Source: Candidatus Krumholzibacteriia bacterium
Lineage (GTDB): Bacteria; Krumholzibacteriota; Krumholzibacteriia; LZORAL124-64-63
Direction of reading: 5' to 3'
Length of the DNA stretch: 51,774 nt
Assembly (NCBI GenBank): GCA_023270185.1
Contig: JAGLCY010000066.1
Location: forward strand, 1 to 51,774
Shown: positions 24,670-50,380 of the stretch, piece after piece
How the letters are laid out: each line of letters opens with the position of its first letter
How positions within the stretch are numbered: the first letter of the stretch is position 1
The notes under the pieces: generated by a model
What the model was told of the DNA's origin: nothing
Seen by the model: the letters and a program-made list of their open reading frames with translations, nothing else
Database searches by the model: none
Program-made: the position numbers and the translations under genes

Positions 24670-27600
24670 ATGAGTCTGGGGAACACCGGAAAGCCGGTCT
24701 TACGCTCTGCAAGGGGCGTTGACTTCGGCTGTTCTCGTGCTCACCCTCGCGACGGTTTGCCTTCCCTGTTCCGGTCATTCGTTTTCCTGTTCGCTCTGGC
24801 CGCTGGTCTGGCCATCCTTCCGGTGGGGATCGCCCAAGCTGATCCCAACTATGAGGGCACCATCCTTTACGGGCTGGATCCGGTGATCAGGACAACGGAA
24901 GATCCTCGCCTGTTGGGTGTCGACCGTTTGGTGTTGCTCCGCCGACTCGAAGGTCTGGGCATCGATCCGCTCAGGTATCCCGATCGGAAACCTGGCCTTG
25001 ATGCCATGTTCCGCCATCATTTCCACTCCCGGTCCAACGTCGATCTTGATCGCCGTGAACACCTTGTCGAGTACAACGGCAACCTGGGCCTGATGAGCGA
25101 GTTCCAATACCCCTCATTCTTCTTTCTGTTCCCGTCGGCTGAAACATTGCCGGGTGGGTTTGCTTATTACCCCCCCCGGCCCACGAGCGATCCTGTAGTC
25201 AGGCTTTTCGTGGACGACCTTAAATCCGGCGTCCGCCGCCGGCATGCGGTGGGACAGGTTTTCGTCAAGATCGAGGCCCTGGATGTTGCCGGTCATGGCC
25301 GTAGGACCGACCAGGATACCGGACTGATCAACCTTACCATCCCCATCAAACTTCCCCGCACTCTGGAGAAGATCATCGGTCGGGGAGAAAAAACAAAGAT
25401 CAAGATCACCGGGCGGGAGCGCATCGCCATCTCCGGGGAAAGCACGGTTGTCAATCCGTTCACTCCCAACGAAAGAGTGTCCAGCCAGTCCCTTTTTCCC
25501 TCCCTGGACATGGAACAGGAGCTACAGGTCAATCTGTCCGGAGTGATCGGCGAAAAAATCATCGTCGAGGTGGACCATAACAGCGCCCAGGTGGGTCCCG
25601 ACGCCACCAAAATCAAGTTGATGTATCAGGGCCTCGAGGATGAAATCATCAAGACCATCGAGACCGGTGACGTGGGCCTGACCCTGCCGGGCAGTCAGCT
25701 GCTCGGATACAGCTCCAACAAGTCCGGTCTGTTCGGTCTCAAGGTGACTGGTCAGGTGGGCCGGGCCGATTTCACCATGGTCGCTTCGAAACAGAAGGCT
25801 GAAACATCTTCCAAGACCTTCAACGCCGTCGGCGGTCAGATTTCCGACAACGTCATAAATTCCTCGGAGTACCTGAATCACCGTTTCTTCAAACTGGATC
25901 TTCCCCTGCAGGAAGTTCCCAACGGCCGGTTCCAGGGCGACCAGATCCTGTTGGAAACCATCAAGATCTTCAGGCTGATGCCCGGGCAACCCGTCGGTAG
26001 TGATATCACCAACGTGGCTGTCTACGTCGACTCTTTGGGTTTCCGAAACTGGGGGAACATCGATTTCAACAAACCCCACCTGTTCGGGCGCCGCTGGCGG
26101 GAAATAGAAAGTGGTTCCTGGGATCCCCTGCGTGACGCGGATGGTCATTTGATAGCAGTGGATCTTCGGTCCCAGATGTCGGATGAGGATGCTTTGGCGG
26201 TGATCTACGATATCAAGTTGGCCGACGGGAGTATCGTACAGGTGGGCGATGTCCCGGGGCAGGATGGTCAGACGCAGATCGTCGAGGGCGGTGACGGAAC
26301 ATATTACCGGATGAAGCTCCTGAAGGCTCCGGTGTCCGCCCAGGAAACCTGGTCTTTCCAGTATGTTCTGCGGAACATCTATTCCCTGGGTGGGGCGAAC
26401 ATCGACAATGCCACTTTCGATTTGCGGATCGAACGCAACGAGCCCGGCACCAACCAGCCCCAGCAGGACGAGAACGGCCTGGATTACATCCGCATTTTCG
26501 GACTGGACCGGGACGATCCCCAGCGCAACGGGTACCCCGACGGTCTGGTCGACAAGTGGGATCCCTTCATCATCGATCTGCAGAAGGGTTTGCTGAAATT
26601 CCCCCTGGATTTTCCGATGCCGTTCGCTCCCGGGGGAAGACCTTTTGGTCGTGAGGGTGAAGCGGACGCAATTGCCGACTCGGTCTTCTCAGCCTACGCC
26701 GACACTTCGGCCTTCGTGTGGGATCCTTCCTTCCTGAAGGACCACCAGACCTGGCAACTTTATCACCCGAGTATTTATCCCTCGGAATACAACCAGCACA
26801 CATCGTTCCGGATCATCGCCACCCACGCTTCGGCCTCGAGCAATTTCAACCTGGGGGCTTCCAACATCGAGGAGGGTTCCGAGACGGTCAATCTCGACGG
26901 GGCCACACTGACCAGGGGTGTGGATTATGAAATCGATTACACCTTCGGGGAGGTCAAGCTGATCGGTTCGGCGGCCGACAAGCTGACCCCAGACAGCAAG
27001 ATCGCGGTCAACTACCAGTTCGCGCCGTTTTTCGGTGGCGGCAACAAGAGCCTGATGGGCTTGAACATCGGTTACGATCTGGGTCAGAGCAGCAAGATGT
27101 CCACAACCTGGCTCTACGAGACCGAAAACATCGTCGGGGAAAAGGCCAAACTGGGTGAGGAACCGAGTAAGAACCTGGTCGGCAACCTGAACCTGCAACA
27201 TACTTTCCGTCCCTATTTCCTGACCCACGTGGCCAACTTCATCAGCCGCCGCAACACCGAACGTGAAAGCACGATCCAGTTCAACGGCGAAACGGCGGTC
27301 AGTCTGCCAAACTCCAATACGATGGGTAAGGTTTATCTCGAGGATTTCGAAGGGGTGGACGCTTCGGACACCATCACCCTGACCCGGATCGGCTGGTCCT
27401 GGGCGAGTGCCCCGTACCTGGGCTCCAGGTATCTTGCCGACAATCCGGACTCGCGGAGCTTTGACCCCGAGGATCGGGTCGGGACGGTTCGCTGGTTCCT
27501 GCCCAAGGAAAGGACCCTGCGAAGGTACCTGAATCCCGATTTGATCAACCAGGAGAGGGATGAAACCCAGCCGTCCATGGACATGTTCATCAGAGCCGAC

Positions 27601-30600
27601 GACGGGTCCTGGGACCCGGAGGATTGGGGCGGCATCATGCGGAGCATCAGTCGGACCGGCCTGGATCTGTCCAAGGCGCAGTTTGTCGAGATCTGGGTCA
27701 ACGACGGGGTGGCGGATCTCAACCAGCGGCGAGGCAAATTGCATATCGATTTCGGCTACATTGATGAGGATGGTTTCTGGCCGGTGGATGTCGATGGTAA
27801 TATCGAGACTGGAACCCGCCAATTGGAGGATGGAATCGTGGAAGGGAGTCCCCGCGATGATGTCTTTTACGCTCCTGATGAGGATATCGGACTTGACGGG
27901 AACGAATTCGGACCGCAGAAGTTCGACGCGAACTTCGAAATCAACGGGGACAGCCCGTACCCCGGCATCAATGGAACCGCGCGGAACTCACGGGAGGACG
28001 ACGAGGATCTCAACGGTGACGACCAACTGAACAGGGACAACGGTTTTTTCACCGCGACCATCGATTTGAAGGACACTAAACCCCTGGTGGACGTGGTGTA
28101 CGACTATGGCGACGTTCAGGATCTGGTGGCCCAGAACATTTCCTGGCGCAAATACCGCATTCCCCTGACTGCCGTGGATACCGTCAGCGTGGGAACTGCG
28201 GCCAACCTTCGCGCTGTAACCCACGCAAGAATCTGGTACGAAGACATCAATCCGGGTGGAAGGACAGCACTCACTCTTCAGATGTCGGAATTCAAATTCC
28301 TCGGCAGCCGGTGGGAACGTGAGGGAATCCGCCGTGTCGACGGGGAGAAGCTTCTCACCCGACCCGAACTCCTGCCGAACGAGGAGTTTTTCCTGGGGGA
28401 GGTGAACAACAAGGAAAATCCCGACTACCATCCGCCCTTCGCTGTCATCGAGAACAATAATATTCCCGAGAAGGAACAGTCCCTGGTCCTGAATTTCACG
28501 AACATCGAACAGGGTCATATGGTGCGCGCCAGCAAGCAGGTGTCCGCGCGGGGTGATGACTACACCCGTTACAGCGACCTGTCCTGGTACTGGTACAATC
28601 CCAGCCACGCGACGGCCGATCTGGATCTGTTCTTCCGGGTGGGCGCCGATACCCTGAACTACTACGAGGTGACCTACCGGTTCAGTGATTCACCCAGCAA
28701 GACCGGATGGCACAACATGAATATCAGCGTGGCGGAACTATCCAACGCGAAAAACGGGACCGTTGACGAGAACGGGCACATCCACTCGACAGTGGTGGAC
28801 AGGCGGAGCAGGGATGTCTACAGGGTCCGGGTGGTGGGAAGGCCCGATCTGCGCCTGGTGAAACGGTATTATTTCGGATTCATGAACAACAACCTGAGCC
28901 AGGAGGCGTCTGGTTACTTCTACCTGAACGATGTGCTCCTCGAGGGGGTCAAGAGGGACATGGGCATGGCCCAGCGGGCGGGCTTGCGTCTGAACATGGC
29001 GGACGTGATCAATGTGGATTTCGACTGGAAACACACGGATGATGAATTCCACGGGCTCAATACCAAGTCGGGCTCCGGCATTGATACCGAGGACTGGAAT
29101 GTCGCCGGGAACCTGGCTGTCGAGGATTTCATTCCCCTGTTGGGTTTCAGGCTGCCGGTGACGGGCAGCAGGCGCCAGATGATCAATCGCCCCAAGTACG
29201 AGACCCACAGCGACATTGAAATCCTCGACGAAGACGTCAGGAATTCCCTGTCGACGATCGATACGCAGGAGAGGTTCTCATCTCGATTGAGCCATTTGCC
29301 GTCCAAGTCCGCCCTTCTCCGATACATGGTTGATCCCTGGTCCCTGCAGATCGCCGGATCCCGTCGCAGAATGAACGGGCCCCTTGAACAACGCCGTGAC
29401 AAGAGCCTGCAGGGATCCTTGAATTTTGATCTGCGTATTCCCGGGGAGTACAATCTCGGAGCCTATCCGCTGGTTGGGGCCATTCCTATCGTGAAGGGCC
29501 TGTCCATCGTGCCCAAGAAAGTGGCGTTTGTAGCCAGTTTTTCAGCTACCCACAACCTCTCCGTCACCATCGACGACAACGGAGTGGTCACGCCCCGGCC
29601 GGTCAATCAGGCCCGACCCGCCAAACTCAACGGCAGCATCGATTACCAACCGTTGCGGATTTTGGACTTGAGCGTATCGGCCAATTCAGACAGGGATCTG
29701 TTGCGTGAATTGAAATGGCATGGTGTGAACATCGGCGAGGAGAACAAGCGAGCCTACGATCTACGCATGACGATCCTCGTACCCCAGGCCCGGGACCTGC
29801 CTTCGACAAAAATCCTGGCTCCGATCCGCACCCTGGCCCGGGGTGCTTCGAAATTGCGTCCCAGCATCCAGTTCAACGGAAGTTTTGCCGATGCCCACGA
29901 TCCCGGTCTGCGCCAGCCCGGGGACCCTGATGACATTCGAAGTGTCAGTAATGGGGGTCGTTGGGAATTCCGAATGGATGTGCCCCTGGGGGATGCCTTC
30001 GGGGCGGTGTTTCCGGAGAAGAAATATTCCCAGGCGGAACGGGACAAATTGATCGCTGAACAACGAAGTCGGGAACGGCAGAACCTCCGCGCGCCAGGAC
30101 ACCAGGGTGATCAACCGCGGCCCCCGGGATCCGGGGAGTCTCCGGATAACCCGGACCCACCGGGAAATCAGGATCCCCAGGGTCGTAGCACGTCCCAGGA
30201 TGATGATTTGGAGGGATTGACCCCCGAAGAGGTCCAGCGACGGGAACAGGAGCGTTTGCTGGAGGAAGCTGAAAGGCAAATGGAACAGGACAGGGAACAG
30301 GGGCTGGTTAAGGAAGAGGAGTCCGTTGCCGAGGGTGGTGGCGGGTTCAATCCCTTATCCATCTTAAATCCCATTCTCAACACACTCCGTAATTCAACGC
30401 CCGTGAAGGTCGTTTACACGGATCAGAATTCGAGCAGTTACTCTCGGCTTCTGGATACGGCACCCTTCTGGTACAAGACGGGCCTGGTCAACGAACTCGA
30501 TGTTGAGGATTCCCAATATTCGTCCTACGGTTCCGACAACAAGGTTAATCTGACCTTGTCCACCAATACCCGAATCACCAAAGACCTTGCACTCGATTTA

Positions 30601-31284
30601 AAATACGCCGAGGGTTCTACGCTGAGAGACCAGATCGGGTCGGTGACCAGGAGTGAAAAACGGGATTGGCCGGATGTTCAATTTTCTCTTTCCGGTATCG
30701 AAAAATGGAGGATTTTCGGCGGCAACAGCCAGGATGTGGATTCAGGCTGGTTCCGTTCCTCCAACTTCAACATCAGTTACAAGCAATCCAAGACGGTGAA
30801 CAATATTACCGACCGTTCCTACAACCCGAATACCACCCTGGCCATCACTCCGCGTTGGACGTTCAACTTCCACAGCGGAATGACCGCCACCGTCAATGCG
30901 AGCTTCAATAATTCCGAAGCGATCACCAACGGCGTTTCGACAATCAGCAACAAGATGCGCTTGGGTCTGCAGATGAGGCATTCCTTCAATGCCCAGACAT
31001 TCCTGGCCAAGCTGGGTCTTTACCAGCCGGGCAGCAGCCAGAGCGTGACCATGGATGTGGACCTATCATACCAGACGGACCGTAATGAACGAATCACCCC
31101 CGGCCTGGCGGCAGCCAAGCCGACCGGGACGAACAGGTACAGCATGGCGCCCAGGTTCAGTTACCAGATCACCAAAAACCTGAGTGGTGCGGTGCGATTC
31201 TCCTTCGGCCGGAGCGAGAACCTTGCTTCCGGGCAAACCACAACCTCCCTCGGGATGGGATTGGAGGCCACCTTTGTTTTCTAG
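24670..31284 (+). CDS. sprA: SprA/Sov-like giant outer-membrane beta-barrel (type IX secretion translocon family)
   Basis: ~2200 aa; signal peptide ending AQA; SprA-type segments QVNLSG.IGEKI, YQG.EDEIIK.IE.G.V.L.LP, GLFGLK..GQ.G, L.RGVDYEIDY.FGEV, YLEDFEG, WRKYRIPL; C-terminal beta-signal LEATFVF. Start uncertain (ORF open from 24565). Confidence 0.88.
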   Translation: MSLGNTGKPVLRSARGVDFGCSRAHPRDGLPSLFRSFVFLFALAAGLAILPVGIAQADPNYEGTILYGLDPVIRTTEDPRLLGVDRLVLLRRLEGLGIDPLRYPDRKPGLDAMFRHHFHSRSNVDLDRREHLVEYNGNLGLMSEFQYPSFFFLFPSAETLPGGFAYYPPRPTSDPVVRLFVDDLKSGVRRRHAVGQVFVKIEALDVAGHGRRTDQDTGLINLTIPIKLPRTLEKIIGRGEKTKIKITGRERIAISGESTVVNPFTPNERVSSQSLFPSLDMEQELQVNLSGVIGEKIIVEVDHNSAQVGPDATKIKLMYQGLEDEIIKTIETGDVGLTLPGSQLLGYSSNKSGLFGLKVTGQVGRADFTMVASKQKAETSSKTFNAVGGQISDNVINSSEYLNHRFFKLDLPLQEVPNGRFQGDQILLETIKIFRLMPGQPVGSDITNVAVYVDSLGFRNWGNIDFNKPHLFGRRWREIESGSWDPLRDADGHLIAVDLRSQMSDEDALAVIYDIKLADGSIVQVGDVPGQDGQTQIVEGGDGTYYRMKLLKAPVSAQETWSFQYVLRNIYSLGGANIDNATFDLRIERNEPGTNQPQQDENGLDYIRIFGLDRDDPQRNGYPDGLVDKWDPFIIDLQKGLLKFPLDFPMPFAPGGRPFGREGEADAIADSVFSAYADTSAFVWDPSFLKDHQTWQLYHPSIYPSEYNQHTSFRIIATHASASSNFNLGASNIEEGSETVNLDGATLTRGVDYEIDYTFGEVKLIGSAADKLTPDSKIAVNYQFAPFFGGGNKSLMGLNIGYDLGQSSKMSTTWLYETENIVGEKAKLGEEPSKNLVGNLNLQHTFRPYFLTHVANFISRRNTERESTIQFNGETAVSLPNSNTMGKVYLEDFEGVDASDTITLTRIGWSWASAPYLGSRYLADNPDSRSFDPEDRVGTVRWFLPKERTLRRYLNPDLINQERDETQPSMDMFIRADDGSWDPEDWGGIMRSISRTGLDLSKAQFVEIWVNDGVADLNQRRGKLHIDFGYIDEDGFWPVDVDGNIETGTRQLEDGIVEGSPRDDVFYAPDEDIGLDGNEFGPQKFDANFEINGDSPYPGINGTARNSREDDEDLNGDDQLNRDNGFFTATIDLKDTKPLVDVVYDYGDVQDLVAQNISWRKYRIPLTAVDTVSVGTAANLRAVTHARIWYEDINPGGRTALTLQMSEFKFLGSRWEREGIRRVDGEKLLTRPELLPNEEFFLGEVNNKENPDYHPPFAVIENNNIPEKEQSLVLNFTNIEQGHMVRASKQVSARGDDYTRYSDLSWYWYNPSHATADLDLFFRVGADTLNYYEVTYRFSDSPSKTGWHNMNISVAELSNAKNGTVDENGHIHSTVVDRRSRDVYRVRVVGRPDLRLVKRYYFGFMNNNLSQEASGYFYLNDVLLEGVKRDMGMAQRAGLRLNMADVINVDFDWKHTDDEFHGLNTKSGSGIDTEDWNVAGNLAVEDFIPLLGFRLPVTGSRRQMINRPKYETHSDIEILDEDVRNSLSTIDTQERFSSRLSHLPSKSALLRYMVDPWSLQIAGSRRRMNGPLEQRRDKSLQGSLNFDLRIPGEYNLGAYPLVGAIPIVKGLSIVPKKVAFVASFSATHNLSVTIDDNGVVTPRPVNQARPAKLNGSIDYQPLRILDLSVSANSDRDLLRELKWHGVNIGEENKRAYDLRMTILVPQARDLPSTKILAPIRTLARGASKLRPSIQFNGSFADAHDPGLRQPGDPDDIRSVSNGGRWEFRMDVPLGDAFGAVFPEKKYSQAERDKLIAEQRSRERQNLRAPGHQGDQPRPPGSGESPDNPDPPGNQDPQGRSTSQDDDLEGLTPEEVQRREQERLLEEAERQMEQDREQGLVKEEESVAEGGGGFNPLSILNPILNTLRNSTPVKVVYTDQNSSSYSRLLDTAPFWYKTGLVNELDVEDSQYSSYGSDNKVNLTLSTNTRITKDLALDLKYAEGSTLRDQIGSVTRSEKRDWPDVQFSLSGIEKWRIFGGNSQDVDSGWFRSSNFNISYKQSKTVNNITDRSYNPNTTLAITPRWTFNFHSGMTATVNASFNNSEAITNGVSTISNKMRLGLQMRHSFNAQTFLAKLGLYQPGSSQSVTMDVDLSYQTDRNERITPGLAAAKPTGTNRYSMAPRFSYQITKNLSGAVRFSFGRSENLASGQTTTSLGMGLEATFVF

Positions 31285-31295
31285 CAGGGTATTTC

Positions 31296-32254
31296 ATGAA
31301 CGGATCCGGAAGGATTTTTTCCGGAGACTGTTTCCTGTTCTCTTCTCGGTAGTTCTGGGTGGTTTCCCGGCGTTTTTTGCCTCCGGTGGGGAGCCAGTGC
31401 CGCTGCCGGATTTTTCCGGTGTCCGGACCATGGAACTTCTCACGGCACAGTGTGATCTGGGAACGCGTATCCCTGGATCCGAGGGTAATCGCCAACTGAG
31501 GGAGATGATTCTTGATCTGGCCCGGAAACATGGATTCACGACCCAGGTCCTTTGCTTCGAAGCTACCGATCCGATGACCGACCAACCGGTCCAGGTTTGC
31601 AACATCATCGTTTCCTCTGGGCCGGAGGAAGGCCAGCGGCTTTGGCTGGGGGCGCATTACGACACGCGGCCGGTCTGTGATCGGGATCCTGACCCTGAGT
31701 TGCGGTCAACGCCCCTGACCGGCGCGAATGATGGAGCCAGCGGTGTGGCGGTTCTGCTCCATCTCATGGAAATTCTGGGTGCTAACCCGCCGCCGCAGGG
31801 GGTCGATTTCCTGTTCTTCGACGGGGAAGATTCTGGTCTGGCGGGGGATCCGAGCGGGTTCTGTCTGGGAAGTCGACAACTGGCCGCGACTTGCCGTGAT
31901 TTCGGGAATCCCTTGTCCCAGGGAACCCCACGCGGCCTCATCGTCCTGGACATGGTGGGCAAGAAGAACCTTCAAATCCCCATGGAAGCCTATTCGCTGG
32001 TGAATGCCCCGGAGTGGACCGAAACGGTTTTCGACCGGGCTGCGCAACTGGGATTGGCCGCCTTTGTTCCGCTGCAGGGGCCTGGCGTCTACGACGATCA
32101 CGTGCCTTTTCTGGAAATGGGGATCCCCGCGGTGGATTTGATCGATTTCGATTTCCCCCAGTGGCACACGACAGGCGACACACCGGAGATCTGTTCCGCC
32201 GTCAGCCTGGCCGAAGTCGGACGACTGATGCTGGACCTTATTTACAACCCCTGA
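31296..32254 (+). CDS. M28-family zinc enzyme, glutaminyl cyclase-like; N-terminus possibly frameshifted
   Basis: GAHYDTRP, GANDGASG, FFDGED, LDMVG, DDHVPF, WHTTGD. The best ATG (31296) is out of frame with the main ORF at a T6 run; in-frame alternatives are GTG 31397 and ATG 31430. Confidence 0.82.
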
Positions 32255-32366
32255 CCGCGACGGTCATTGCGGGGATGCAATCGGAGCTAAATTGCCGCTC
32301 CGGGCGGCCGAAACAATAACCAGTTACGTTTTGTTTTTTTCCCGGAATTCTAGGAGGAGCGGGGTA

Positions 32367-32966
32367 ATGATCACCACCTGCACCGAATGCCAGGCGCGAT
32401 ATCAACTGGATGCTGAGAAAATCCCCCCTCGGGTGATCAAGGTCCGATGCCCCTCATGCGGGGGAGTATTCAGCCTTGATGGCAGCCTTGCCAAAAATCA
32501 GGCCCAGAAAGAGGAAACCCAGCCTCAGGTCAAACAGCCAGCGGTTCCCGAGCCGGCGGCAACGGTGCCTGCGACCCCCGAACCTGTCGCCACGGTTCCT
32601 GCGACCCCTGAGCCCGTAGCCACGGCCCCTGCGACCCCCGAGCCCGTAGCTACAGTGGATGCAGCCCCCAAAAAATCCTCAGCCAGCGTTGCCGTTATGG
32701 ATCGCCCGGCCCCGTCCAGTTCACGCCGGAGGCGCAGTAAAGAGGAAATGTTGGCGCGCGCTCTGGTTTCCGACATCATGGTCTACAATCAGGACCTCTA
32801 TGATCGGGCCAAGGCTGAGGGGAACCTTCTTGAGGCCCTGGGATCCGAAATCAAGAAGTCCTGGGAGCTTTACAAGGAAAAGGTGACACCGGAAGTTGCC
32901 AACAGCACCAATCACTTCCGGGATGCCCTGAATGAAATCCTGGCTGACGGAGATAAACTTTTCTGA
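32367..32966 (+). CDS. MJ0042-type zinc-ribbon protein with Pro/Ala/Thr linker and helical C-terminal domain (putative RomX-like)
   Basis: AGGAGG RBS; CTEC...VRCPSC zinc ribbon; C-terminal LARALVSDIMVYN...EIKKSWELYKEKV...HFRDALNEILA. Confidence 0.8.
   Translation: MITTCTECQARYQLDAEKIPPRVIKVRCPSCGGVFSLDGSLAKNQAQKEETQPQVKQPAVPEPAATVPATPEPVATVPATPEPVATAPATPEPVATVDAAPKKSSASVAVMDRPAPSSSRRRRSKEEMLARALVSDIMVYNQDLYDRAKAEGNLLEALGSEIKKSWELYKEKVTPEVANSTNHFRDALNEILADGDKLF
32547..32657 (+). repeat. 30-bp in-frame tandem repeat, ~3.7 copies (PEPVATVPAT)
   Basis: Units start at 32547, 32577, 32607 and 32637 (partial), e.g. CCCGAACCTGTCGCCACGGTTCCTGCGACC. Confidence 0.9.
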
Positions 32967-32982
32967 TTCTCCGCTCCTTTTC

Positions 32983-33025
32983 GAAAAAGAAAGCGCGGCT
33001 CCGTTTCCAGCGGAGCCGCGCTTCT
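32983..33025. terminator. Intrinsic terminator between convergent genes
   Basis: AAGCGCGGCTCCG-7nt-CGGAGCCGCGCTT perfect 13-bp stem; A-rich left flank gives a U-tract on the minus strand. Confidence 0.8.
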
Positions 33026-33047
33026 GTTCCCGTTCTGATGCCTGTTT

Positions 33048-33488
33048 TTAACTCGCGCCCTTGTCGCGGCTGATCTCGGTCAGGATTTCGTCGATCTGCT
33101 GACGAATCCGGACATTGTGATCGGGTTCGAACAGCGCTTGTTTTACCCGTCCCTTGTCATCCTTTTTGACGTATCTGAGGGATTGCAGGTCCTCCATCGA
33201 CATTAGGATGTCCTTGCTCACTCTGACTTCGACCGCAAGGCCTTCCTGATTGGCGCCGGGGTTGTGATAGGGATGCATTCCGTTGCCCCAACCGTGGACC
33301 ACCATCGAACAGAGAAGAGCTCGAAAGGTGTTTTGTCCCTTGACGGTTTCAAGGTCGAAACTTCCACCCACCCGGTCGGTCACGCTGTCGATGACCGCTG
33401 AGAGCTTGTGGATGATATCTTCTTCGACTTCGATTTGTAGCAGGCGGCCGAACATTGTTGTCAGGATTTTGTCGGTATTGGTGGTCAT
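33048..33488 (-). CDS. Hypothetical protein (146 aa)
   Basis: ORF with protein-like composition filling the gap between a terminator and a divergent promoter region; family not recognised. Confidence 0.75.
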   Translation of the reverse strand: MTTNTDKILTTMFGRLLQIEVEEDIIHKLSAVIDSVTDRVGGSFDLETVKGQNTFRALLCSMVVHGWGNGMHPYHNPGANQEGLAVEVRVSKDILMSMEDLQSLRYVKKDDKGRVKQALFEPDHNVRIRQQIDEILTEISRDKGAS

Positions 33489-33585
33489 CTGGCCACTTTC
33501 TGTTGCGAATCTTTCCTTTAAATGCCCGGAGGAAGCCTTAAATGGCCCACCGTGCGCTATTCAATCCCTTTGTTCGGTCGATCAT

Positions 33586-33601
33586 TGCAAATTGCTTGCC
33601 T
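33586..33601 (-). promoter_or_regulatory. Possible sigma-54 promoter for the 146-aa gene
   Basis: Minus strand AGGCAAGCAATTTGCA, GG-N10-GC spacing, imperfect -24 box. Confidence 0.4.
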
Positions 33602-33656
33602 ACTTTCGTTGGATCACCGATTCGGGGCCAAAATGGGGAGAAAGATGTTCAATCCA

Positions 33657-33672
33657 TGGCACAGGGATTGCA
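33657..33672 (+). promoter_or_regulatory. Sigma-54 promoter upstream of the MglA-like gene
   Basis: TGGCACAGGGATTGCA matches TGGCAC-N5-TTGCW. Confidence 0.72.
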
Positions 33673-33739
33673 TAAAATGGATTGAGGACTCTCTCCGCGA
33701 GTTCCGGAACCGTGGCCCATCCATGAAAAGGATGCCGAA

Positions 33740-34588
33740 TTGGCTGAGGAAATGATCACTTCGCAGAAGACTTGCCGTCTACTGTATTACGGACCCGCCG
33801 AGTCGGGTAAGCGGGCCAATCTGAGGCATATCCATCAGTCCATTCCCCCCGAGCACCTGTTGGCTCTGGCCAACGAGGATCCGGAGCGCCAGATCGCTTT
33901 CCGGGTCACTCATGGAAATGACGGGGACTGGCAGGTTCTTGTGCAAGCGGTGGATTCGGGCCAGGAACATTATCGGGCAGCGGCTACGCCCGAACGCGCT
34001 CCTTTCGACGGTATCGTGTTCGTGGTGGATTCCCGGCTGGAACAACTGGACCAGAGCCTGGCTGCCTTCGAGTCCCTGAAAACCTACCTTGATACATATG
34101 GCCTGGACCTGACCGAGGTTCCGGTCGTGATCCAGTACAACAACCGTGATAAATCCGATATCCTGCCTGTGGACAGGATGGAAAGTCTGCTCAATCCCTG
34201 GGGTCTTCTCTCTTTCCCCGCCAACGCGGTCAAGGGAGAGGGTGTCAGGGAGACACTGAAATCGGTGCTGGGTCTGACGGTCACCCATCTCAACGACAAG
34301 CCCGAGGACTCGACCCGTTCCACGGAGTTCGAAATCGCTGTTTCCCAGGACAACTCGGCCACGGCGACGGATATGGAAAGCGATAAAAGTGGGCTTGGCA
34401 TAGATTACGGTCCTCCCATCCCCGGGACGGAGATCCAGGATTCGACCAAAGCTCTCAGCGATGCCATCTTCGAGGAATTGCGACCGCCCGTGGTCATTCC
34501 CGTGAAGATTCCCAGGCGTCTGTTTTCGGGCGATGGGCCCATCAAAATCCTGTTGGAAATCGAAATCGACGACAGCTCGACCTTCTAA
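33740..34588 (+). CDS. MglA-like Ras-superfamily small GTPase, degenerate, with C-terminal extension
   Basis: CRLLYYGPAESGKRANL (MglA: CKIVYYGPGLCGKTTNL), GQ..Y, DGIVFVVDS, PVVIQYNNRD, A..GEGVRETL; TTG start with AAGGA RBS. Confidence 0.82.
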   Translation: MAEEMITSQKTCRLLYYGPAESGKRANLRHIHQSIPPEHLLALANEDPERQIAFRVTHGNDGDWQVLVQAVDSGQEHYRAAATPERAPFDGIVFVVDSRLEQLDQSLAAFESLKTYLDTYGLDLTEVPVVIQYNNRDKSDILPVDRMESLLNPWGLLSFPANAVKGEGVRETLKSVLGLTVTHLNDKPEDSTRSTEFEIAVSQDNSATATDMESDKSGLGIDYGPPIPGTEIQDSTKALSDAIFEELRPPVVIPVKIPRRLFSGDGPIKILLEIEIDDSSTF

Positions 34589-34613
34589 ACTGTCTCCCGC
34601 ACCTTTCCGGGCG

Positions 34614-34642
34614 TTGACCCCAGCCTTGTTCTGGGGTAGATT
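34614..34642 (+). promoter_or_regulatory. Putative sigma-70 promoter giving a leaderless TPR-gene mRNA
   Basis: TTGACC-N17-TAGATT; ATG 34649 is 7 nt past the -10 box; no SD sequence. Confidence 0.5.
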
Positions 34643-34648
34643 GCCCGC

Positions 34649-35524
34649 ATGAATAAACCAGCTCCTGAATATCCATCACCAGACGAGGGTCCCCGGTCCA
34701 GCGCCGAACTGTTCCAGGCCGGACGCAAGGCCGAACAGGCGGGCGAGCTCGAAAAAGCCCGTCAGGCCTACGAGCTTGCCCTCGCATCCACTCCGGACCA
34801 GCACCCCTGGCACTACAGGCTGGGCTGTGTGTTCATGAAACTCGACCTTCCTGAGCGCGCTGAGCATTGTTTCCATCGGGCCAATGAATTGGAACCGGGG
34901 ACGCCTGCCTACCTTACCAACCTGGGTGTGTGCCTGGACCGTCAAGGTCGTCGGGACGAGGCCGTCCGGGCCTACAGGAAATCGACTCACCAGGGTGGCG
35001 CCAGCCCTGTGGCCTTTCACAACCTGGGGGCTATCTACGCGGAGGAGGGACGGACCGACGAAGCCATCAGGGCTTTCGAGTCCGCCCTCGCCCTTGAGCA
35101 GGACGCCGAGGGATACATGAATCTGGGCCTTGTCCACTATGCCCGGGAGGACTTCGCGCGGGCCCTGGACTGTTTCGAACGCAGTGTCGAATGCGATCCG
35201 GGGTTTGCCCGTGGTCATTATTACGCCGCCCTTTGCCTGATGAAGAGTGGGATATACGGGGACGCCTGCCTGCGCTTCGATCTGGCCTGGAAACTTGATC
35301 CCCGCCTGGCGCGCATTCCCTACTATAGGGGAACTTGTCTCCATAAGCTTGAACGATACGAAGAGGCTCGCACCAGCCTGGAGAGTGCCCTGGAGTTTTT
35401 TCCCGAAGACGGTCGCACTCACTACCAGATAGCGCTCACCTGTGATGCGCTGGGCATGCCCCAGGAGGCAAGGTTGCATTACAGCCAGGCCCGAGCAGGG
35501 CACAGTGCCGGTGGCCATTCCTGA
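34649..35524 (+). CDS. Tetratricopeptide-repeat protein (~8 TPRs, cytoplasmic)
   Basis: Repeated NLG/LG....G...EA...F..AL...P 34-aa periodicity; no signal peptide. Confidence 0.9.
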   Translation: MNKPAPEYPSPDEGPRSSAELFQAGRKAEQAGELEKARQAYELALASTPDQHPWHYRLGCVFMKLDLPERAEHCFHRANELEPGTPAYLTNLGVCLDRQGRRDEAVRAYRKSTHQGGASPVAFHNLGAIYAEEGRTDEAIRAFESALALEQDAEGYMNLGLVHYAREDFARALDCFERSVECDPGFARGHYYAALCLMKSGIYGDACLRFDLAWKLDPRLARIPYYRGTCLHKLERYEEARTSLESALEFFPEDGRTHYQIALTCDALGMPQEARLHYSQARAGHSAGGHS

Positions 35525-35595
35525 TCCAACCCATTTAAAATGCGAGGTCACCGTGATGGGCCTGCACGGGTTTCTCAACAGCGAGGTAACCAACC

Positions 35596-36381
35596 GTGGT
35601 TGAAATCCTGAACATGCTTCTGTTGGCCGTGGTCCAGGGGCTGACTGAATTTTTGCCTGTCAGCAGTTCCGGTCATCTGGTCCTGTTTCAATATTTTCTG
35701 GGTGTCAGGGAGGGAGATGTCTTCTTCGACGTTCTCCTGCACGTCGGAACCCTGGGATCCATCCTGGTGGTCTACCGGCGTGAGATCCTGCGGCTGCTTA
35801 AGTTTGATCGGGCGGCCACGGGATACCTGGTAAGCCTGGCGGTGGGCACCTTGCCGGCGGTTGCCGTTGGTCTTCTGCTAAAGAGTCATATAGAAGAGCT
35901 CTACCATAGCCCTTTGGTTGCCGCCGGGGGGCTGGTGTTCACTGCTGCTGTTCTTTTCTCCACCCGTTTTTCCCGTTCCTCGCAGCCACTCGATGACCCA
36001 TGGGAGCCTCATCCTGTCGCCCTTGGGCGCGCGTTGTTGATAGGTATCGCGCAGGGTTTTGCCATCCTGCCGGGTATCAGCCGCTCCGGCTCAACCATTG
36101 CCGCCGCTCTGTGGGCTGGTTTGCCTCGTGCCGAAGCCGCCCGGTTCAGTTTTTTGCTGTCCATTCCCGCGGTTGGAGGGGCTCTTGTCCTGCAATTGAT
36201 GGACGGTCAGACTTCGAGCCCCGGTGAGACAGGGAGGCTGCTTCTGGCAGGTCTGGCCGCCTTCGCCGTGGGACTGTTGGCCATCAGGTGGACGGCGCTG
36301 GCCGTTGTTCAGGCCCATTTCTGGAAATTCAGCTTCTATTGTTTGTTTGTCGGTGTGGCGGTTCTGCTTGTTCTTGGCTGA
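35596..36381 (+). CDS. uppP: Undecaprenyl-diphosphate phosphatase (BacA)
   Basis: VQGLTEFLPVSSSGHL, PGISRSGST, AARFSFLLSIPA. Confidence 0.96.
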   Translation: MVEILNMLLLAVVQGLTEFLPVSSSGHLVLFQYFLGVREGDVFFDVLLHVGTLGSILVVYRREILRLLKFDRAATGYLVSLAVGTLPAVAVGLLLKSHIEELYHSPLVAAGGLVFTAAVLFSTRFSRSSQPLDDPWEPHPVALGRALLIGIAQGFAILPGISRSGSTIAAALWAGLPRAEAARFSFLLSIPAVGGALVLQLMDGQTSSPGETGRLLLAGLAAFAVGLLAIRWTALAVVQAHFWKFSFYCLFVGVAVLLVLG

Positions 36382-36412
36382 TCGGGGGAGGCAGACGTGG
36401 GGTTTCGCCTGA

Positions 36413-36793
36413 TCAAACCACCGGGCTGGGTGAGAGAATCTCCGCCAGGGTAGTGGTTACGCGGTCGTGGTCGAAAGGTTTGATGATGAAGTCCCTGGCC
36501 CCGGCCTTGATGGCGTTCAGGACCTGGTCTTTCTGACCGAGGGCGGTGATCATGACAACCTGGGCCTGGGGATCTTCGGCCAGGATTGCCTTCAGGGCTT
36601 CAGTGCCGTCCAGGTTCGGCATGGTGATGTCGAGCAGCACCAGGTCGGGGCGGAGCTTCCGGTACTGGGCGATGGCTTCCTTGCCGTCACCGGCTTCACC
36701 GGCGACGGTCCACTCCATGTCCTCGATAATCTGGCAAAGGATGGCCCGCATGAATGCGGCGTCGTCCGCGATGAGGATGGTGTGGCCCAACAT
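36413..36793 (-). CDS. cheY: Stand-alone CheY-type response regulator
   Basis: ILIADDAAFMR, PDLVLLDITMP, MITALGQ, AGARDFIIKPF (Bacillus/Thermotoga-type CheY pattern); GGAGGT RBS before ATG 36793. Confidence 0.8.
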   Translation of the reverse strand: MLGHTILIADDAAFMRAILCQIIEDMEWTVAGEAGDGKEAIAQYRKLRPDLVLLDITMPNLDGTEALKAILAEDPQAQVVMITALGQKDQVLNAIKAGARDFIIKPFDHDRVTTTLAEILSPSPVV

Positions 36794-37003
36794 GTACCTC
36801 CAACAGTAACAATCATCCTGGGATCCGGGACAAAAATGCCGGCACCCTTTGGAAATTTTATTGTTTACCCTGAACCATCGTGTCAACAAAATGATCGTCC
36901 GAACCGTCTATGACTTTAGATTGAATGGTATATGCTGAGTCCAGGCCAGACGGCCGCGGCCCGATGACCGGTTCTTTTCCGATTCCAAACGGAGGTTGTG
37001 AAC

Positions 37004-38422
37004 ATGAATGTCAATCCGATGAAAACGCAGGGAATCCTGCTGTTTGCAGGTATCCTGCTGTTGGTTGGTGCTCTCGCCGTTTCGGCGGCGGAAGACCAGT
37101 TCGTCGCCTCCGCAGAAGGCGATCGCGTGCAGACCGACGTGACGGTCTACAACCGTGATCTGGCTCTGGTCCGGGAAATCCGGAAAGTTACCCTGCCGGC
37201 CGGAGATTTTTCCTTTGAATTCCGTGATGTGCCTTCGCGCATCAATCCCGTGACCCTTCTGGTTTCGTCGTCCGGGGATTCGGAATTGGAATTGTACGAA
37301 CAGAACTATGAATTCGACCTGATGTCCCCGGATAAGATCCTGCAGAAATACGTCGGCCGCGAACTTGTCTGGATCCAGGAGGACGGAAGCCGCTTGAACG
37401 GTACCCTGCTGGGAATGAGCAACGGGCCTGTGTATCGGGTGAACGAGGAAATCGTCTTCGAGATGCCCGGTCGCTTGGCACTCCCGGAATTGCCGGACAA
37501 CCTGAGGGCTCGGCCCACCCTGGTATGGCTGGCACATACTTCCAGCGGTGGCTCAAGCGAGGTCGAGACTTCCTACCTGACCGGCGGTTTTTCCTGGCAT
37601 GCCGATTATGTCCTGCAACTTGACGAAGAAGGCGAGAAGGCCGGTTTGCAAGCCTGGGTCACCGTGGAAAACAGGACGGGAGCTTCCTACCGGGATGCGA
37701 ACCTGTTGCTGGTGGCCGGAGATCTCAACCAGGTCCGGCCCGCCATGGAGAAAAGGATGGTGATGGTCGCGGACATGGCCGGAGCAGCTCCTTCCTTCCA
37801 GGAAGAGACCCTTTACGATTATCATATGTACACCATGCAGCGTCCGACTGATCTGCTGGACAATCAGATCAAACAAATTTCCCTTTTCGACGCAACCGGT
37901 TTGAAAGTAACGAAACACTACAAGCTGCGGGCGCAGCCACACTTCTTCCGTGGTCATGGACGGTTGCTGGATAATTCCAAGGTCAGCGTCAGTTACAGTT
38001 TCGAAAACACAGAGGACAACAAACTGGGCATGGCACTTCCTGCAGGTGTGTTCCGTGTCTACGGGCGTTCCGCTTCGGGATCGAGACAATTGCTGGGAGA
38101 GGACCGGATCGACCACACCCCGAAAAAGGAAACGGTCGATCTGACGGTGGGAAAAGCCTTCGATATCGTGGCCGAAAGGGTCCGGACCAATAGTGAGAAA
38201 CTGGCGGACAATCTGCACCGCACCACCTTTGAGATAACTATCCGCAATCACCGCGAAAATGATGTCGTGGTTGAGGTTACAGAGCCAGTGGGCGGATACT
38301 GGGAAGTGATTGCCGAATCCCTGCCGCACCGGAAGGTGAGCGCCAACGAATTGGCTTTCGACGTGCCGGTGTCCGCTGACGGGGAAACAGTACTTACCTA
38401 CACTGTTCAGGTGAAGTACTAG
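37004..38422 (+). CDS. DUF4139/DUF4140-domain exported protein
   Basis: Signal peptide; VTVYN.DLALVRE.R, YLTGGFSWHADY, L.AWVTVENRTG, LPAG.FRVY, IDHTP; GGAGG RBS. Confidence 0.85.
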   Translation: MNVNPMKTQGILLFAGILLLVGALAVSAAEDQFVASAEGDRVQTDVTVYNRDLALVREIRKVTLPAGDFSFEFRDVPSRINPVTLLVSSSGDSELELYEQNYEFDLMSPDKILQKYVGRELVWIQEDGSRLNGTLLGMSNGPVYRVNEEIVFEMPGRLALPELPDNLRARPTLVWLAHTSSGGSSEVETSYLTGGFSWHADYVLQLDEEGEKAGLQAWVTVENRTGASYRDANLLLVAGDLNQVRPAMEKRMVMVADMAGAAPSFQEETLYDYHMYTMQRPTDLLDNQIKQISLFDATGLKVTKHYKLRAQPHFFRGHGRLLDNSKVSVSYSFENTEDNKLGMALPAGVFRVYGRSASGSRQLLGEDRIDHTPKKETVDLTVGKAFDIVAERVRTNSEKLADNLHRTTFEITIRNHRENDVVVEVTEPVGGYWEVIAESLPHRKVSANELAFDVPVSADGETVLTYTVQVKY

Positions 38423-38446
38423 CTGGGAGGGCCATGGGGATTCGGA

Positions 38447-40651
38447 TCAGTTCCGGGTCCCGCCCATCAATTCCCTCAACCGTTGTTGCAGACGGGAATC
38501 CCCGGGTCGCAGTTCCAGGGCCTTTTCCAGGGCCCTGACGGCGCCCGATCGGTCTCCCGAACCTTGAAGGGCCACAGAGAGATTGACCCAGGCTTCGAAC
38601 CTTTTGGGATCGATGTCGGCGGCTCTCCGAAAGAAACCCGCCGCCTTGTCAGGGTTGCCCAGACGCATTTGACAGACGCCCGCGTTGAGGGCCGATCCAG
38701 CCAGGCGGCCGTTCTTTTCCAGCGCGAGCTTGAAATGGAGGAGAGCCTCATGGAAATGCTGGCTGTCCAAGAGCAGATTACCCAGATTGTGATTCAGTGT
38801 CGGGTGATCAGGCCTGAAGGAGAGCCCTCTGCGGAACGCGATTTCCCGTTGTTCAGTATCCCCGGCGAACATATAGAGATGACCCGCGGCGAGGCAGATG
38901 TCCGCTTTCCTTGCCAGGGATCCGCGGTCGGCTTCGGCCTCGGTCCTCGCGGCTGCCCGTAAAAGGGTGCCATGGTCGTTTCTTTGGTCGTATCCATCGT
39001 TGTCGCCCTTGTCGGTAGGCTTGGTCGGCCGGAACAGGAGGCCGGCTCCTTCCGCGGTCCAAAGATCCCAACTGGAGGAGTTCAACAGCTGGATAGCCAA
39101 CTGATCAAAGGAGCCGCCACCGGTGGCCAGACAGACCGCGTCGACGCGATACTTGTCTGCCAGAAGTTTCAGGGCCTTTTCGTCACCGCGCTTGATGTCC
39201 AGGTACTTTGCCCAGAGGTCGGGTGAATAGGCCTCGGTCCGCCCATCGATGAAGATCTGTCCGCTGGTATTGGCCAGCAGGAAAGCCGCCGCATCGAGGT
39301 TGGCGAAATACGTCGGACTCTCACCGCTGGTCATGGCCTCTGCGGCCGCCAGGGGATAGCGCGCCGGATTCACCCCTGTTCCGAAGCGTCGTCCAATTCC
39401 CTCCCCGAGGTAGAAATCGTCATTGATGATATGTGGCCAAAACAGGCCCGCTGTGATCAGTGTCACGGTCAGGCCGAATATCGGGATCAGGGTCGCCGGG
39501 AGAGTGGGGAGCTTCCGGGGAAGGGAAAAGCGCCAGGGATTGCCGCCGGCACCTGTGTGGAGCAGCATGAACGCCACTCCGTAGATGCCGATGCTCCGCT
39601 GATTGGTCCAGGCTGCAAACGCGGCCAGGGCAAAAACCAGGATCCGCAGGAGGCTGACCCGGCCGAAAGTCGCGATGACCCACACAAGCCCCCACACCAG
39701 GCTGACGCGGAAGGCGGTGATGGTCAGGCACAGGGAATTGGGCGATTCCCGAAGGGGAACAAGCTCGGAAATGGTGGAGCGCAGGTCGACCTGGGATTGG
39801 GAAAACTGACCAAGGGCCCGGATAGGCATGAGAAGTCCGTTCCAGCCGTTGGGCGTCAGGATCAGGGCGATGAGGGCCAGGAAAACCAGGGCCGTCGCCC
39901 GCCCCATGCCGGGGCCCCGTTGGTCGGGATGGCGTTTGCCGGGAAATAGACGTGCCTGAATCGGCGCCATGGTCCCGCCCAGGAGCAGCACGAGGGGCGC
40001 CAGTGAAGCAAAGCCATGAAACTGTGCCCAGATCACCGTGAGAAGCAAAATGCGGCCGGCGGTCCGGGGAGGGGCAGAAGGGGCTGTCCGGAAAAATTCT
40101 TCGGTCCAACGGACCAGGAGCACAAAGAACAAGTAGGAGAACAATTCCGGACGAATTGTCAATCGGGGCCACAGAAGCAGTAAACCGGCCAGAATCGGCA
40201 CTCCCATCCATGCTGCGGCGGATGGGCCTTCCCGCCCGAGGAGGCGGGACACTCCTTTATCCCCTGCGAGAATCGTCAGTAAAAGGAGGAGGGTCAGGGC
40301 GGATCTCATCAGGTTCCAGCCAGTGACGTCGGGTGATTCAAGTCCATCCCCGGGTGGAAGAGTCCCCGGGCCGGTCAACGCGGTCAGAACCTGGAACATC
40401 CATTCGTGATTCACCCAGGGATGATCGGGTTCTGAAAAGGAGAATCGATTGGCGGAGATGACACCCTGTCCGTCCAGCAGATCGCGCCCCGCGCGCAGGT
40501 GAAACCAGATATCGAGATCGCCAAGGCTGTGCCAGGACAGAAGGAGGCCTGTCAAAACGGGGATCAGAAGGGATAGCAGTCCCCACCAGGCCAGGGACGG
40601 ACGTCTTTGGGGGCGAGTCGGAACATCCCGGGCGTCTGGTGGTTGCGGCAT
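38447..40651 (-). CDS. Polytopic membrane protein (GT-C glycosyltransferase-like) with C-terminal TPRs
   Basis: DLDIWFHLRAG after TM1, WVNHEWMFQ, RPELFS, W..FHG, FIDGRTEAY; ~10 or more TM segments; ~4 TPRs at the C-terminus. Confidence 0.72.
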   Translation of the reverse strand: MPQPPDARDVPTRPQRRPSLAWWGLLSLLIPVLTGLLLSWHSLGDLDIWFHLRAGRDLLDGQGVISANRFSFSEPDHPWVNHEWMFQVLTALTGPGTLPPGDGLESPDVTGWNLMRSALTLLLLLTILAGDKGVSRLLGREGPSAAAWMGVPILAGLLLLWPRLTIRPELFSYLFFVLLVRWTEEFFRTAPSAPPRTAGRILLLTVIWAQFHGFASLAPLVLLLGGTMAPIQARLFPGKRHPDQRGPGMGRATALVFLALIALILTPNGWNGLLMPIRALGQFSQSQVDLRSTISELVPLRESPNSLCLTITAFRVSLVWGLVWVIATFGRVSLLRILVFALAAFAAWTNQRSIGIYGVAFMLLHTGAGGNPWRFSLPRKLPTLPATLIPIFGLTVTLITAGLFWPHIINDDFYLGEGIGRRFGTGVNPARYPLAAAEAMTSGESPTYFANLDAAAFLLANTSGQIFIDGRTEAYSPDLWAKYLDIKRGDEKALKLLADKYRVDAVCLATGGGSFDQLAIQLLNSSSWDLWTAEGAGLLFRPTKPTDKGDNDGYDQRNDHGTLLRAAARTEAEADRGSLARKADICLAAGHLYMFAGDTEQREIAFRRGLSFRPDHPTLNHNLGNLLLDSQHFHEALLHFKLALEKNGRLAGSALNAGVCQMRLGNPDKAAGFFRRAADIDPKRFEAWVNLSVALQGSGDRSGAVRALEKALELRPGDSRLQQRLRELMGGTRN

Positions 40652-42836: not shown

Positions 42837-43063
42837 GTTTCTTCCGCTTCATCGGCAGGTGTACGGTTTTTAGCCATGACGAGGTGTTGAAGGTGGGATT
42901 CCCCGACCTGGAGAACCAACTGTTGTTATAATATATTCTATTTTGTTTATTTGCAAGCATTTGCCAGGCCGGAATTGGAGTGCGGATGGCACTGGCCTTG
43001 CATGGAGATTCAGAGCCGGAACACCGGTCTGATTCCAGATATCCGGAAAGCGGGAGTTTGAGT

Positions 43064-50245: not shown

Positions 50246-50380
50246 GAAAAGGCCACCAAGGTTGCAGGATCGGTTGTTGTGCAGGGATATTACCACATTG
50301 CTCCCGCTCGGGACAGATGTTAGATTCCGCATTCCTAGGAGTTTCAACGGATCGGTTCAAGGGCTTCGACAGGAGAGATC

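Follow-up and report, generated by a model that had tools for sequence, protein, structure and literature searches.

No spatial switches of bacteria are better understood than the MglA-type G proteins, and almost all of this knowledge comes from Myxococcus and Bdellovibrio. Can the contact of such a G protein with RomX, and its use of a tetratricopeptide repeat (TPR) effector, work without a GTPase cycle? This question is raised by a locus of Candidatus Krumholzibacteriia bacterium (assembly GCA_023270185.1, contig JAGLCY010000066.1), of which positions 1–51,774, referred to here as the window, were analysed. The locus spans positions 32367–36793, both ends being the ATG codons of its first and last genes, and encodes a fusion of a zinc ribbon (ZnR) with a RomX-like domain (ZnR-RomX), a protein of 146 amino acids (aa) termed orf146, an MglA-like G protein, an all-TPR protein (TPR291), the undecaprenyl-diphosphatase UppP and a single-domain CheY. 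All these elements, which an initial annotation of the same DNA had listed as a possible Myxococcus-like polarity module, were located at the same positions, directly downstream of the genes for SprA, the translocon of the T9SS (type IX secretion system), and for an M28 peptidase. Named relatives belong to Candidatus Krumholzibacteriota, a phylum of the FCB (Fibrobacteres–Chlorobi–Bacteroidetes) group and not to Myxococcota. The comparison covers 43 loci obtained by scanning one genome per species with peptide patterns of the MglA-like family, followed by tblastn with 14 window proteins.

The explanation that accounts best for the data, on which our own judgement is evenly poised, is that the locus holds a phylum-wide, MglB-less derivative of the Myxococcus MglA/RomX module in which the G protein no longer works as a timed GTPase and has become a fixed adaptor.

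The G protein is derived from MglA and has altered nucleotide-binding motifs

Comparison of the G protein with the MglA proteins of M. xanthus and Thermus in the PDB using phmmer gave an E value of 1.1e-21 over residues 9–185, the next family being Rab (E 0.017). In a Foldseek search with its structural model, ranks 1–12 and 14 were all occupied by MglA chains (E 3e-17 to 7e-15), with the next match at 5e-10. These sequence and fold matches indicate that the protein is MglA-derived, in line with the initial annotation. A Pfam scan returned nothing at E ≤ 0.01, with Arf at 0.044, and databases call the proteins of the module no more than 'hypothetical' or 'zinc-ribbon domain-containing', with 'MglA' and 'SRP receptor beta' as occasional names. 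The protein comprises a G domain (aa 9–185), a variable spacer and a conserved C-terminal tail (aa ~215–282). Its AlphaFold2 model, built with 103 relatives, shows a predicted local distance difference test (pLDDT) value of about 90 in the G domain and of 55–72 in the tail. This tail of ~90 aa is kept in 103 sequences and contains the motif G-L-G-I-D-Y-G-P-P followed by I-F-x-E-L-R-P-P-V-V-I-P-V-K-I-P-R-R-L-L...I-L-L-E-V-E; a search of the Atlas with it gave no usable match. A wider search for relatives yielded 975 matches, and among the 120 matches listed all belong to the same family.

Functional residues were counted in the 103 relatives, with equivalences taken from the phmmer alignment to MglA. 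The P-loop lysine (MglA K25) is present in 103/103 sequences, and the intrinsic arginine finger (MglA R53) is likewise found in 103/103, as R50. The Mg2+ ligand T26 of MglA corresponds to R25 in all 103, so that the P-loop reads GxxxxGKR and not GxxxxGK[S/T], and the switch-I Mg2+ ligand T54 corresponds to Q51 in 97/103 and to Thr in none. At the position of G21, the G12-like glycine, 78/103 sequences have alanine (A20) and 2/103 have glycine, and the catalytic Q82 is Gln in 17/103, Arg in 48 and Lys in 22. The G3 motif is [A/S/C]-V-D-[A/S]-G-x instead of TVPGQ, and G4 is N-x-R-[D/E] instead of [NT]KxD, with Asn in 102/103, Lys in 0/103, R136 in 103/103 and D/E at position 137 in 99/103. Judged from these substitution patterns, the family looks like one that has lost Mg2+-dependent GTPase chemistry in a fixed, selected way, which agrees with the earlier description of the GTPase as degenerate. 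PseudoGTPases, both eukaryotic and bacterial, have a G-domain fold that is under selection and catalytic and Mg2+-binding residues that are replaced, and the MglA-like family shares these traits; we know of no bacterial pseudoGTPase derived from MglA.

Prokaryotic small GTPases include five MglA groups, and the parts of PMC4316618 that describe them assign the intrinsic arginine to Group 1 only and a P-loop Ser/Thr to all five. Since the intrinsic arginine is retained here and every group keeps the P-loop Ser/Thr, the family looks like an offshoot of Group 1. According to that study, 390 of 449 MglA genes have a coupled MglB gene within four genes. Scans of the window for a Roadblock/LC7 domain gave no match in 33 open reading frames (ORFs) with Pfam or in 25 with NCBIfam, which bears out the annotated absence of an adjacent MglB.

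The MglA-like protein could still be a working nucleotide switch of unconventional chemistry, although we regard this as unlikely. Arg25 would then replace Mg2+ at the phosphates, N134 and D137 would read guanine although the lysine is missing, as is the case in Group 2/3 MglA, ZnR-RomX would act as exchange factor or recruiter, and a regulator other than a Roadblock protein, most obviously orf146, would take part in the cycling. The P-loop glycines and lysine, R50, N134 and D/E137 are all retained, which speaks for such a switch, and Group 2 MglA lacking the G4 lysine is described as hydrolysing GTP (PMC4316618, in part). Against this, the equivalents of G21, T26, T54 and Q82, four determinants of hydrolysis or Mg2+ binding, have been lost together.

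A zinc ribbon is fused to a RomX-like domain

The protein encoded by the first gene of the locus carries at its C-terminus the RomX-like domain that the initial annotation had suspected. Residues 124–192 (nucleotides (nt) 32736–32942), a three-helix domain, align without gaps over 69 residues to residues 7–75 of RomX (PDB 8ZNA), with an E value of 5.2e-9 for the single sequence and of 3.1e-12 for a 27-sequence profile. The N-terminal zinc ribbon (aa 1–36) was recognized by the Pfam family Zn_ribbon_4 (53.2 bits vs a cut-off of 30.3) and by the NCBIfam model MJ0042_CXXC (E 1.4e-10), and it matched the GltJ/AgmX ribbon structures 7ZOK and 2NB9 at E 1e-4; the NCBIfam GltJ model scored 19.8 bits vs a cut-off of 450. 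Two CxxC pairs (C5, C8, C28 and C31) as well as R131 and D136 are invariant in 27/27 aligned sequences. None of the 27 full-length relatives aligned has the RomX-like domain as a stand-alone protein of ~90 aa; in all of them a zinc ribbon precedes it at the N-terminus, and the two are joined by a disordered, Pro/Ala-rich linker of 70–130 aa that varies in length and sequence across loci.

In Myxococcus, RomX and MglA bind directly. Helix 1 of RomX (R11, R14, D19) contacts MglA-GTP and is needed for binding or exchange, and helix 3 (positions 75, 76 and 87) contacts the receiver domain of RomR, as reported in the relevant parts of 10.1101/2024.02.20.581209, where the RomX fold is also stated to co-occur with receiver and Zn-finger domains in AlphaFold-DB matches. 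The invariant R131 and D136 of the fusion protein are the equivalents of R14 and D19, i.e., two of the three MglA-contact residues of helix 1. Whether RomRX is an exchange factor is disputed, since it has also been argued, in the part of 10.1101/2024.10.31.621274 considered here, to be an effector that strictly binds MglA-GTP. A complex prediction for residues 1–190 of the MglA-like protein with GTP and residues 118–199 of ZnR-RomX scored 0.00 (mark 0.32), which speaks neither for nor against binding.

As for the ribbon, that of GltJ binds the C-terminal helix of MglB and an intramolecular linker, and that of ZitP binds PopZ (PMC11135422, in part), partners that mark such ribbons as docking modules. 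Like GltJ (AgmX) and ZitP in that account, the window protein joins an MJ0042-type ribbon with four invariant cysteines to a flexible linker. Unlike GltJ, a membrane protein organized as ZnR-linker-GYF, it is a soluble ZnR-linker-RomX protein.

orf146 is a strongly conserved gene of no recognizable family

The 146-aa gene deserves the name of orphan given to it in the initial annotation. Its product matched nothing in Pfam, NCBIfam, PADLOC or PHROGs, and a search of PDB sequences gave 0 matches at E ≤ 10 with the single sequence and a best E of 0.52 with a profile. The AlphaFold2 model has a moderate pLDDT of 68.8, and its best Foldseek match in the PDB had an E value of 0.17 and a TM-score (template modelling score) of 0.28. 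The best Atlas match, 0.88 to the archaeal AF_0843, is a lead at most. A HMMER search of 1.84 billion cluster representatives retrieved 24 relatives at E ≤ 0.001, many of them fragments.

Nevertheless, orf146 is the most conserved gene of the region after that for the sigma-70 factor, with a mean column identity of 87% and a median identity to the window copy of 81% (40 loci), vs 57% for the MglA-like protein and 59% for SprA. Across the phylum its copies are 77–92% identical, whereas SprA, the M28 peptidase and the MglA-like protein fall to 45–60%. This strong constraint and the control region that orf146 shares with the G-protein gene would both suit a regulator of a cycling G protein, as the working-switch alternative demands, yet orf146 resembles no GTPase-activating protein (GAP) or Roadblock protein in sequence or fold, as far as its moderate model allows.

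A hidden MglB or other Roadblock protein was also considered for orf146. This assignment is unsupported, there being neither a Roadblock-like Foldseek match nor sequence similarity, with the reservation that the model is of moderate quality and a better one could differ.

Sigma-54-type elements are conserved between the divergent genes

Sigma-54 motifs had been annotated between orf146 and the MglA-like gene. An exact TGGCAC-N5-TTGCA lies 67 nt before the start of the MglA-like gene, and a site at 46–83 nt upstream of this gene is present in 42/42 loci. Sites were counted when GG and GC were intact and at least 9 of the 11 consensus positions matched, the background in the same loci being 0.018 per 250-nt strand. 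On the opposite strand, a block GGCAAGCAWWTTGCA with the correct GG-N10-GC spacing is found 80–130 nt upstream of orf146 in 31/42 loci; the window copy has two mismatches. Besides the ribosome-binding sites, these two sigma-54-type blocks are the only conserved blocks in the alignment of 43 intergenic sequences. The element on the plus strand is, judged from its conserved consensus, a predicted sigma-54 promoter before the MglA-like and TPR genes, and that on the minus strand would be a weak sigma-54 promoter in divergent orientation or else the binding site of an activator. The motifs annotated as driving the divergent pair thus reappear, one of them in degenerate form.

The window also contains rpoN (10014–11525) within an LptC-LptB-RpoN-HPF cluster, so the organism has sigma-54. 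Sigma-54 motifs are not enriched within the window, where 17 sites with at most two mismatches were counted vs 22.7 expected. The only other exact TGGCAC-N5-TTGCA in the window, TGGCACTGGCCTTGCA, is at 42987–43002 (+), at the start of an ORF of 248 aa (42980–43726) that has no Pfam or NCBIfam match; it may be a sigma-54 promoter for a gene further downstream.

TPR protein, UppP and CheY

The remaining neighbours listed in the initial annotation, a TPR protein, UppP and CheY, were all recognized by Pfam. The TPR gene begins 61 nt after the MglA-like gene in the window, and in 40/40 loci holding both the spacing is 49–200 nt (median 72), so the two genes are probably co-transcribed. PDB matches of the TPR protein were consensus or designed TPRs and the TPR region of OGT. 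The uppP gene is missing between the TPR gene and cheY in 7/35 loci (L011–L015, L017 and L018), and UppP is probably a neighbour rather than a part of the module.

CheY, present in 36 loci, starts with an ATG at 36793 that is preceded by a GGAGG ribosome-binding site and a TTGACA-like element. It is encoded in a separate unit convergent with uppP and is closest to the bona fide chemotaxis CheY of Thermotoga (E 5.8e-35); it scored 113.9 bits with the NCBIfam model CheY_Halo, below the cut-off of 200.

The locus is collinear throughout the phylum

The initial annotation had proposed conserved synteny as a check, and the genes are indeed co-conserved in all 43 related loci, which represent a single phylum and are collinear over the whole region. 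The shared order is LptF, SprA, M28, ZnR-RomX, orf146(−), MglA-like, TPR, (UppP), CheY(−), (DUF4139), membrane-TPR(−), sigma-70, YigZ(−), where (−) marks the opposite strand and whole names in brackets mark genes that are not always present. The core orf146(−)/MglA-like(+)/TPR(+) is never interrupted, with a gap of 226–332 nt between orf146 and the MglA-like gene (n=39), and the RomX-like domain is found in 39/43 loci, the contigs of the other four ending before it. The variable parts lie outside this core: no DUF4139 gene separates cheY from the membrane-TPR gene in L019, L021, L024, L025, L027 and L036, and insertions of 1.3 kb are found in the M28/ZnR gap of L011 and in the ZnR/orf146 gap of L025.

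Such a pattern raises the alternative that the genes are neighbours by descent only. The partner of ZnR-RomX would then be a canonical MglA from elsewhere in the genome, the MglA-like/TPR operon would have an unrelated task, and orf146, UppP and CheY would each have housekeeping or chemotaxis roles of their own. The 20-kb collinearity takes in the plainly unrelated LptF/G, UppP, sigma-70 and YigZ. In addition, the locus consists of four separate transcription units, with ZnR-RomX and orf146 converging on a terminator and cheY having its own promoter, and fusions of the RomX-like domain with other components of the module were not found, a weak kind of evidence; the one longer fused form is a ZnR protein of 356 aa. 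These observations favour descent alone. However, the only system studied has RomX and MglA as cognate partners, and their relatives here are encoded two genes apart in 39/39 loci reaching that far. Moreover, UppP, DUF4139 and the two 1.3-kb insertions vary around the orf146/MglA-like/TPR core and never inside it, and the divergent pair has common conserved control elements. On balance, we consider it unlikely that descent alone explains the grouping.

Two further observations concern the loci themselves. In L042 (CAWGRT010000015.1), SprA, the M28 peptidase, DUF4139 and the membrane-TPR gene are split into many short tblastn pieces, which suggests a frameshift-rich assembly and not real pseudogenes. 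Several of L009, L018, L035, L039, L023 and L043 are labelled Fibrobacteraceae, Gemmatimonadales or Deltaproteobacteria; their gene order and identities match those of the Krumholzibacteriia loci, and the odd names probably stem from bin or taxonomy labelling, not from a true spread to other phyla.

Relation to SprA and the Bdellovibrio precedent

The genes for SprA, the M28 peptidase and ZnR-RomX are on the same strand and adjacent in every locus reaching that far, with a median M28-ZnR gap of 115 nt (n=30) in which no terminator is predicted. The M28 gene ('QC' in the initial annotation) follows sprA in each of these loci, and its longest ORF overlaps the end of sprA (stop at 31284) by ~100 nt.

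An arrangement combining an MglB-less MglA, a TPR protein and an outer-membrane secretion system, as initially proposed, has a precedent in Bdellovibrio bacteriovorus, whose MglB-less MglA binds the cytoplasmic TPR protein Bd2492, encoded in the tamAB outer-membrane secretion operon. The relevant parts of the same report (PMC3983030) state that in deltaproteobacteria the loss of G21 accompanies that of mglB and that Bdellovibrio MglA keeps the residues critical for GTP binding. Set beside that description, the window has the corresponding features of a substituted G21 (A20), a gene for a cytoplasmic TPR protein (TPR291) and a secretion gene, SprA, upstream. It differs in that the GTP-binding residues are not retained and in that the TPR gene belongs to the G-protein operon instead of the secretion operon.

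The adjacency and this precedent could be taken to mean that the locus is a dedicated T9SS unit, in which the MglA-like adaptor, TPR291 and a ZnR-RomX co-transcribed with sprA and M28 provide the cytoplasmic control or positioning of SprA. We hold this to be very unlikely. SprA is an outer-membrane protein, whereas the module proteins are all cytoplasmic, and no inner-membrane link was identified. The literature searched contained no paper linking MglA to T9SS or SprA, the terms being met together in one listed paper, and there only incidentally. Since the whole region is collinear, the adjacency is uninformative on whether SprA belongs to the module, and L011 carries its insertion precisely between M28 and ZnR.

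A proposed fixed adaptor in place of a timed switch

The fixed-adaptor reading draws on the comparison with the MglA/RomR/RomX system of M. xanthus. As in that system, the G domain is closest to Group-1 MglA with the intrinsic arginine retained, and two genes away from the G-protein gene lies that for a RomX-homologous domain in which R14 and D19 have equivalents. Unlike in Myxococcus, neither MglB nor RomR is encoded nearby and RomX is fused to a zinc ribbon. The G protein itself differs from Myxococcus MglA in lacking the Mg2+ ligands, G21, the NKxD lysine and, mostly, the catalytic Gln, and in its added tail of ~90 aa; finally, a sigma-54 promoter is predicted in the window and the host belongs to an FCB-group phylum.

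We propose that the RomX-like domain would bind the MglA-like protein through helix 1, and that the zinc ribbon may link the two proteins to a partner that is a landmark or belongs to the envelope, in the manner of GltJ and ZitP. The co-expressed cytoplasmic TPR protein could play the part of effector scaffold that SgmX has in Myxococcus and Bd2492 has in Bdellovibrio. With hydrolysis unlikely, the module would be turned on and off through sigma-54/activator-dependent expression and partner binding, and not through a cycle of GAP and guanine nucleotide exchange factor. The product of orf146, divergently transcribed from the shared control region, may be a co-regulated component. Candidate machines to be positioned or gated are the adjoining SprA/T9SS, pili or gliding, and envelope synthesis. 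Transmembrane-like segments are absent from ZnR-RomX, orf146, the MglA-like protein, the TPR protein and CheY, and any link of these five soluble proteins to SprA or another envelope machine therefore needs further partners.

Several observations weigh against this explanation. The loss of Mg2+ ligands may mean that the protein binds no nucleotide at all, yet RomX is reported to bind only MglA-GTP. In the RomX-like domain, the equivalent of R11 is an invariant M128, with an RRRR run 5–8 residues upstream, and because the alignment stops at RomX residue 75, with 7 residues remaining, the RomR-binding positions of helix 3 cannot be placed. No RomR-like protein is encoded nearby, the sole receiver protein being of the CheY type; this CheY resembles ordinary chemotaxis CheY and forms its own transcription unit, and the TPR protein resembles only generic or consensus TPRs. 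No gene for a sigma-54 activator (bacterial enhancer-binding protein) was found in the window. Moreover, a single phylum supplied all 43 loci, and the ~20 kb from LptF to YigZ are wholly collinear, so gene order is expected from descent alone and is weak evidence for function. Canonical mglA and mglB may also exist elsewhere in these genomes, of which ~20 kb each were covered. Of the non-myxobacterial polarity module put forward in the initial annotation, the homologies and the co-conservation stand; its positioning or gating of secretion or motility machinery is a hypothesis.

A bolder form of the proposal is quite improbable in our estimation. Here, the MglA-derived pseudo-GTPase adaptor, whose sigma-54-set presence would itself be the switch, would place or license the SprA translocon or another envelope machine at a defined site by means of the ZnR-RomX tether, the TPR scaffold and orf146. 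If true, T9SS would thereby have its first cytoplasmic positioning system, and bacteria their first pseudoGTPase derived from MglA.

The MglA family, RomX, the MJ0042 ribbon, TPR repeats and the sigma-54 promoter are of known kinds. What appears to be new is a pseudo-GTPase-like MglA with GKR and Q51 fixed and the tail conserved, its sigma-54-controlled pairing with a ZnR-RomX fusion, a TPR gene and orf146, and its phylum-wide presence in an FCB-group lineage. The locus offers a natural experiment: in a whole phylum, strong selection maintains the MglA fold together with a RomX-like partner, without the residues of Mg2+-dependent hydrolysis and with no MglB found at the locus. It thereby allows one to ask whether an MglA-type protein can contact RomX and act through a TPR effector when there is no GTPase cycle, a question that bears on the dispute over RomRX as exchange factor or effector. 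It also gives a pointer to sigma-54 control of such a module and a candidate new component, the near-invariant orf146. As the phylum is uncultured, tests must be biochemical or heterologous.

Gene organization of the window

The features of the locus and its upstream neighbours are collected in Table 1. ZnR-RomX and orf146 converge on the strong hairpin, which is followed by a T-run after the stem on the minus strand.

Table 1. Coordinates of the locus and of the adjoining genes in the window, with the evidence for each assignment.
Feature	Position	Strand	Evidence
SprA, T9SS translocon	24565–31284	+	TIGR04189 E 6.2e-139, 464.8 bits vs cut-off 200
M28 peptidase	31184–32254	+	Peptidase_M28 E 8.1e-28
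ZnR-linker-RomX fusion protein, 199 aa	32367–32966	+	Zn_ribbon_4 E 2.7e-14; RomX 8ZNA match
30-bp tandem repeat (x3) within the Pro-rich linker	32562–32650	+	TRF: 3.0 copies, 86% matches
Hairpin terminator between ZnR-RomX and orf146	32990–33024		14-bp stem, 10 GC pairs
orf146, soluble 146-aa protein	33048–33488	−	No family match
Block GGCAAGCAATTTGCA, GG-N10-GC spacing; candidate weak sigma-54 promoter of orf146 or activator-binding site	33586–33601	−	2 mismatches
Predicted sigma-54 (−24/−12) promoter TGGCACAGGGATTGCA before the MglA-like/TPR genes	33657–33672	+	Exact consensus
MglA-like G protein, 282 aa	33740–34588	+	PDB MglA E 1.1e-21; no Pfam match at E ≤ 0.01
All-TPR protein (TPR291), 291 aa	34649–35524	+	Pfam TPR_1/TPR_2 E 1e-40 to 1e-43
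UppP/BacA undecaprenyl-diphosphatase	35596–36381	+	Pfam BacA E 9.7e-67
Single-domain CheY	36413–36793	−	Response_reg E 8e-30

Downstream of CheY, the window encodes a DUF4139 protein, a multi-pass membrane protein that carries TPRs at its C-terminus, a sigma-70 factor and YigZ. LptF and LptG are encoded upstream of SprA, and the LptC-LptB-RpoN-HPF cluster lies further upstream; with the genes for the IIB, IIC and IID components of a sorbose-family phosphotransferase system (PTS) that follow it, this cluster occupies positions 8688–15563 (+). An Rfam scan of positions 31000–38500 returned nothing at E ≤ 0.1. Three other ORFs of the window are without a Pfam match at E ≤ 1e-4, namely 15671–17491 (−, 606 aa), which also has no NCBIfam match, 12506–13498 (−, 330 aa) and 4933–5859 (−, 308 aa). 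Finally, positions 47744–50347 (−) encode a large membrane protein of PDZ-GAF-SpoIIE (PP2C phosphatase) type, which may be a partner-switching regulator.

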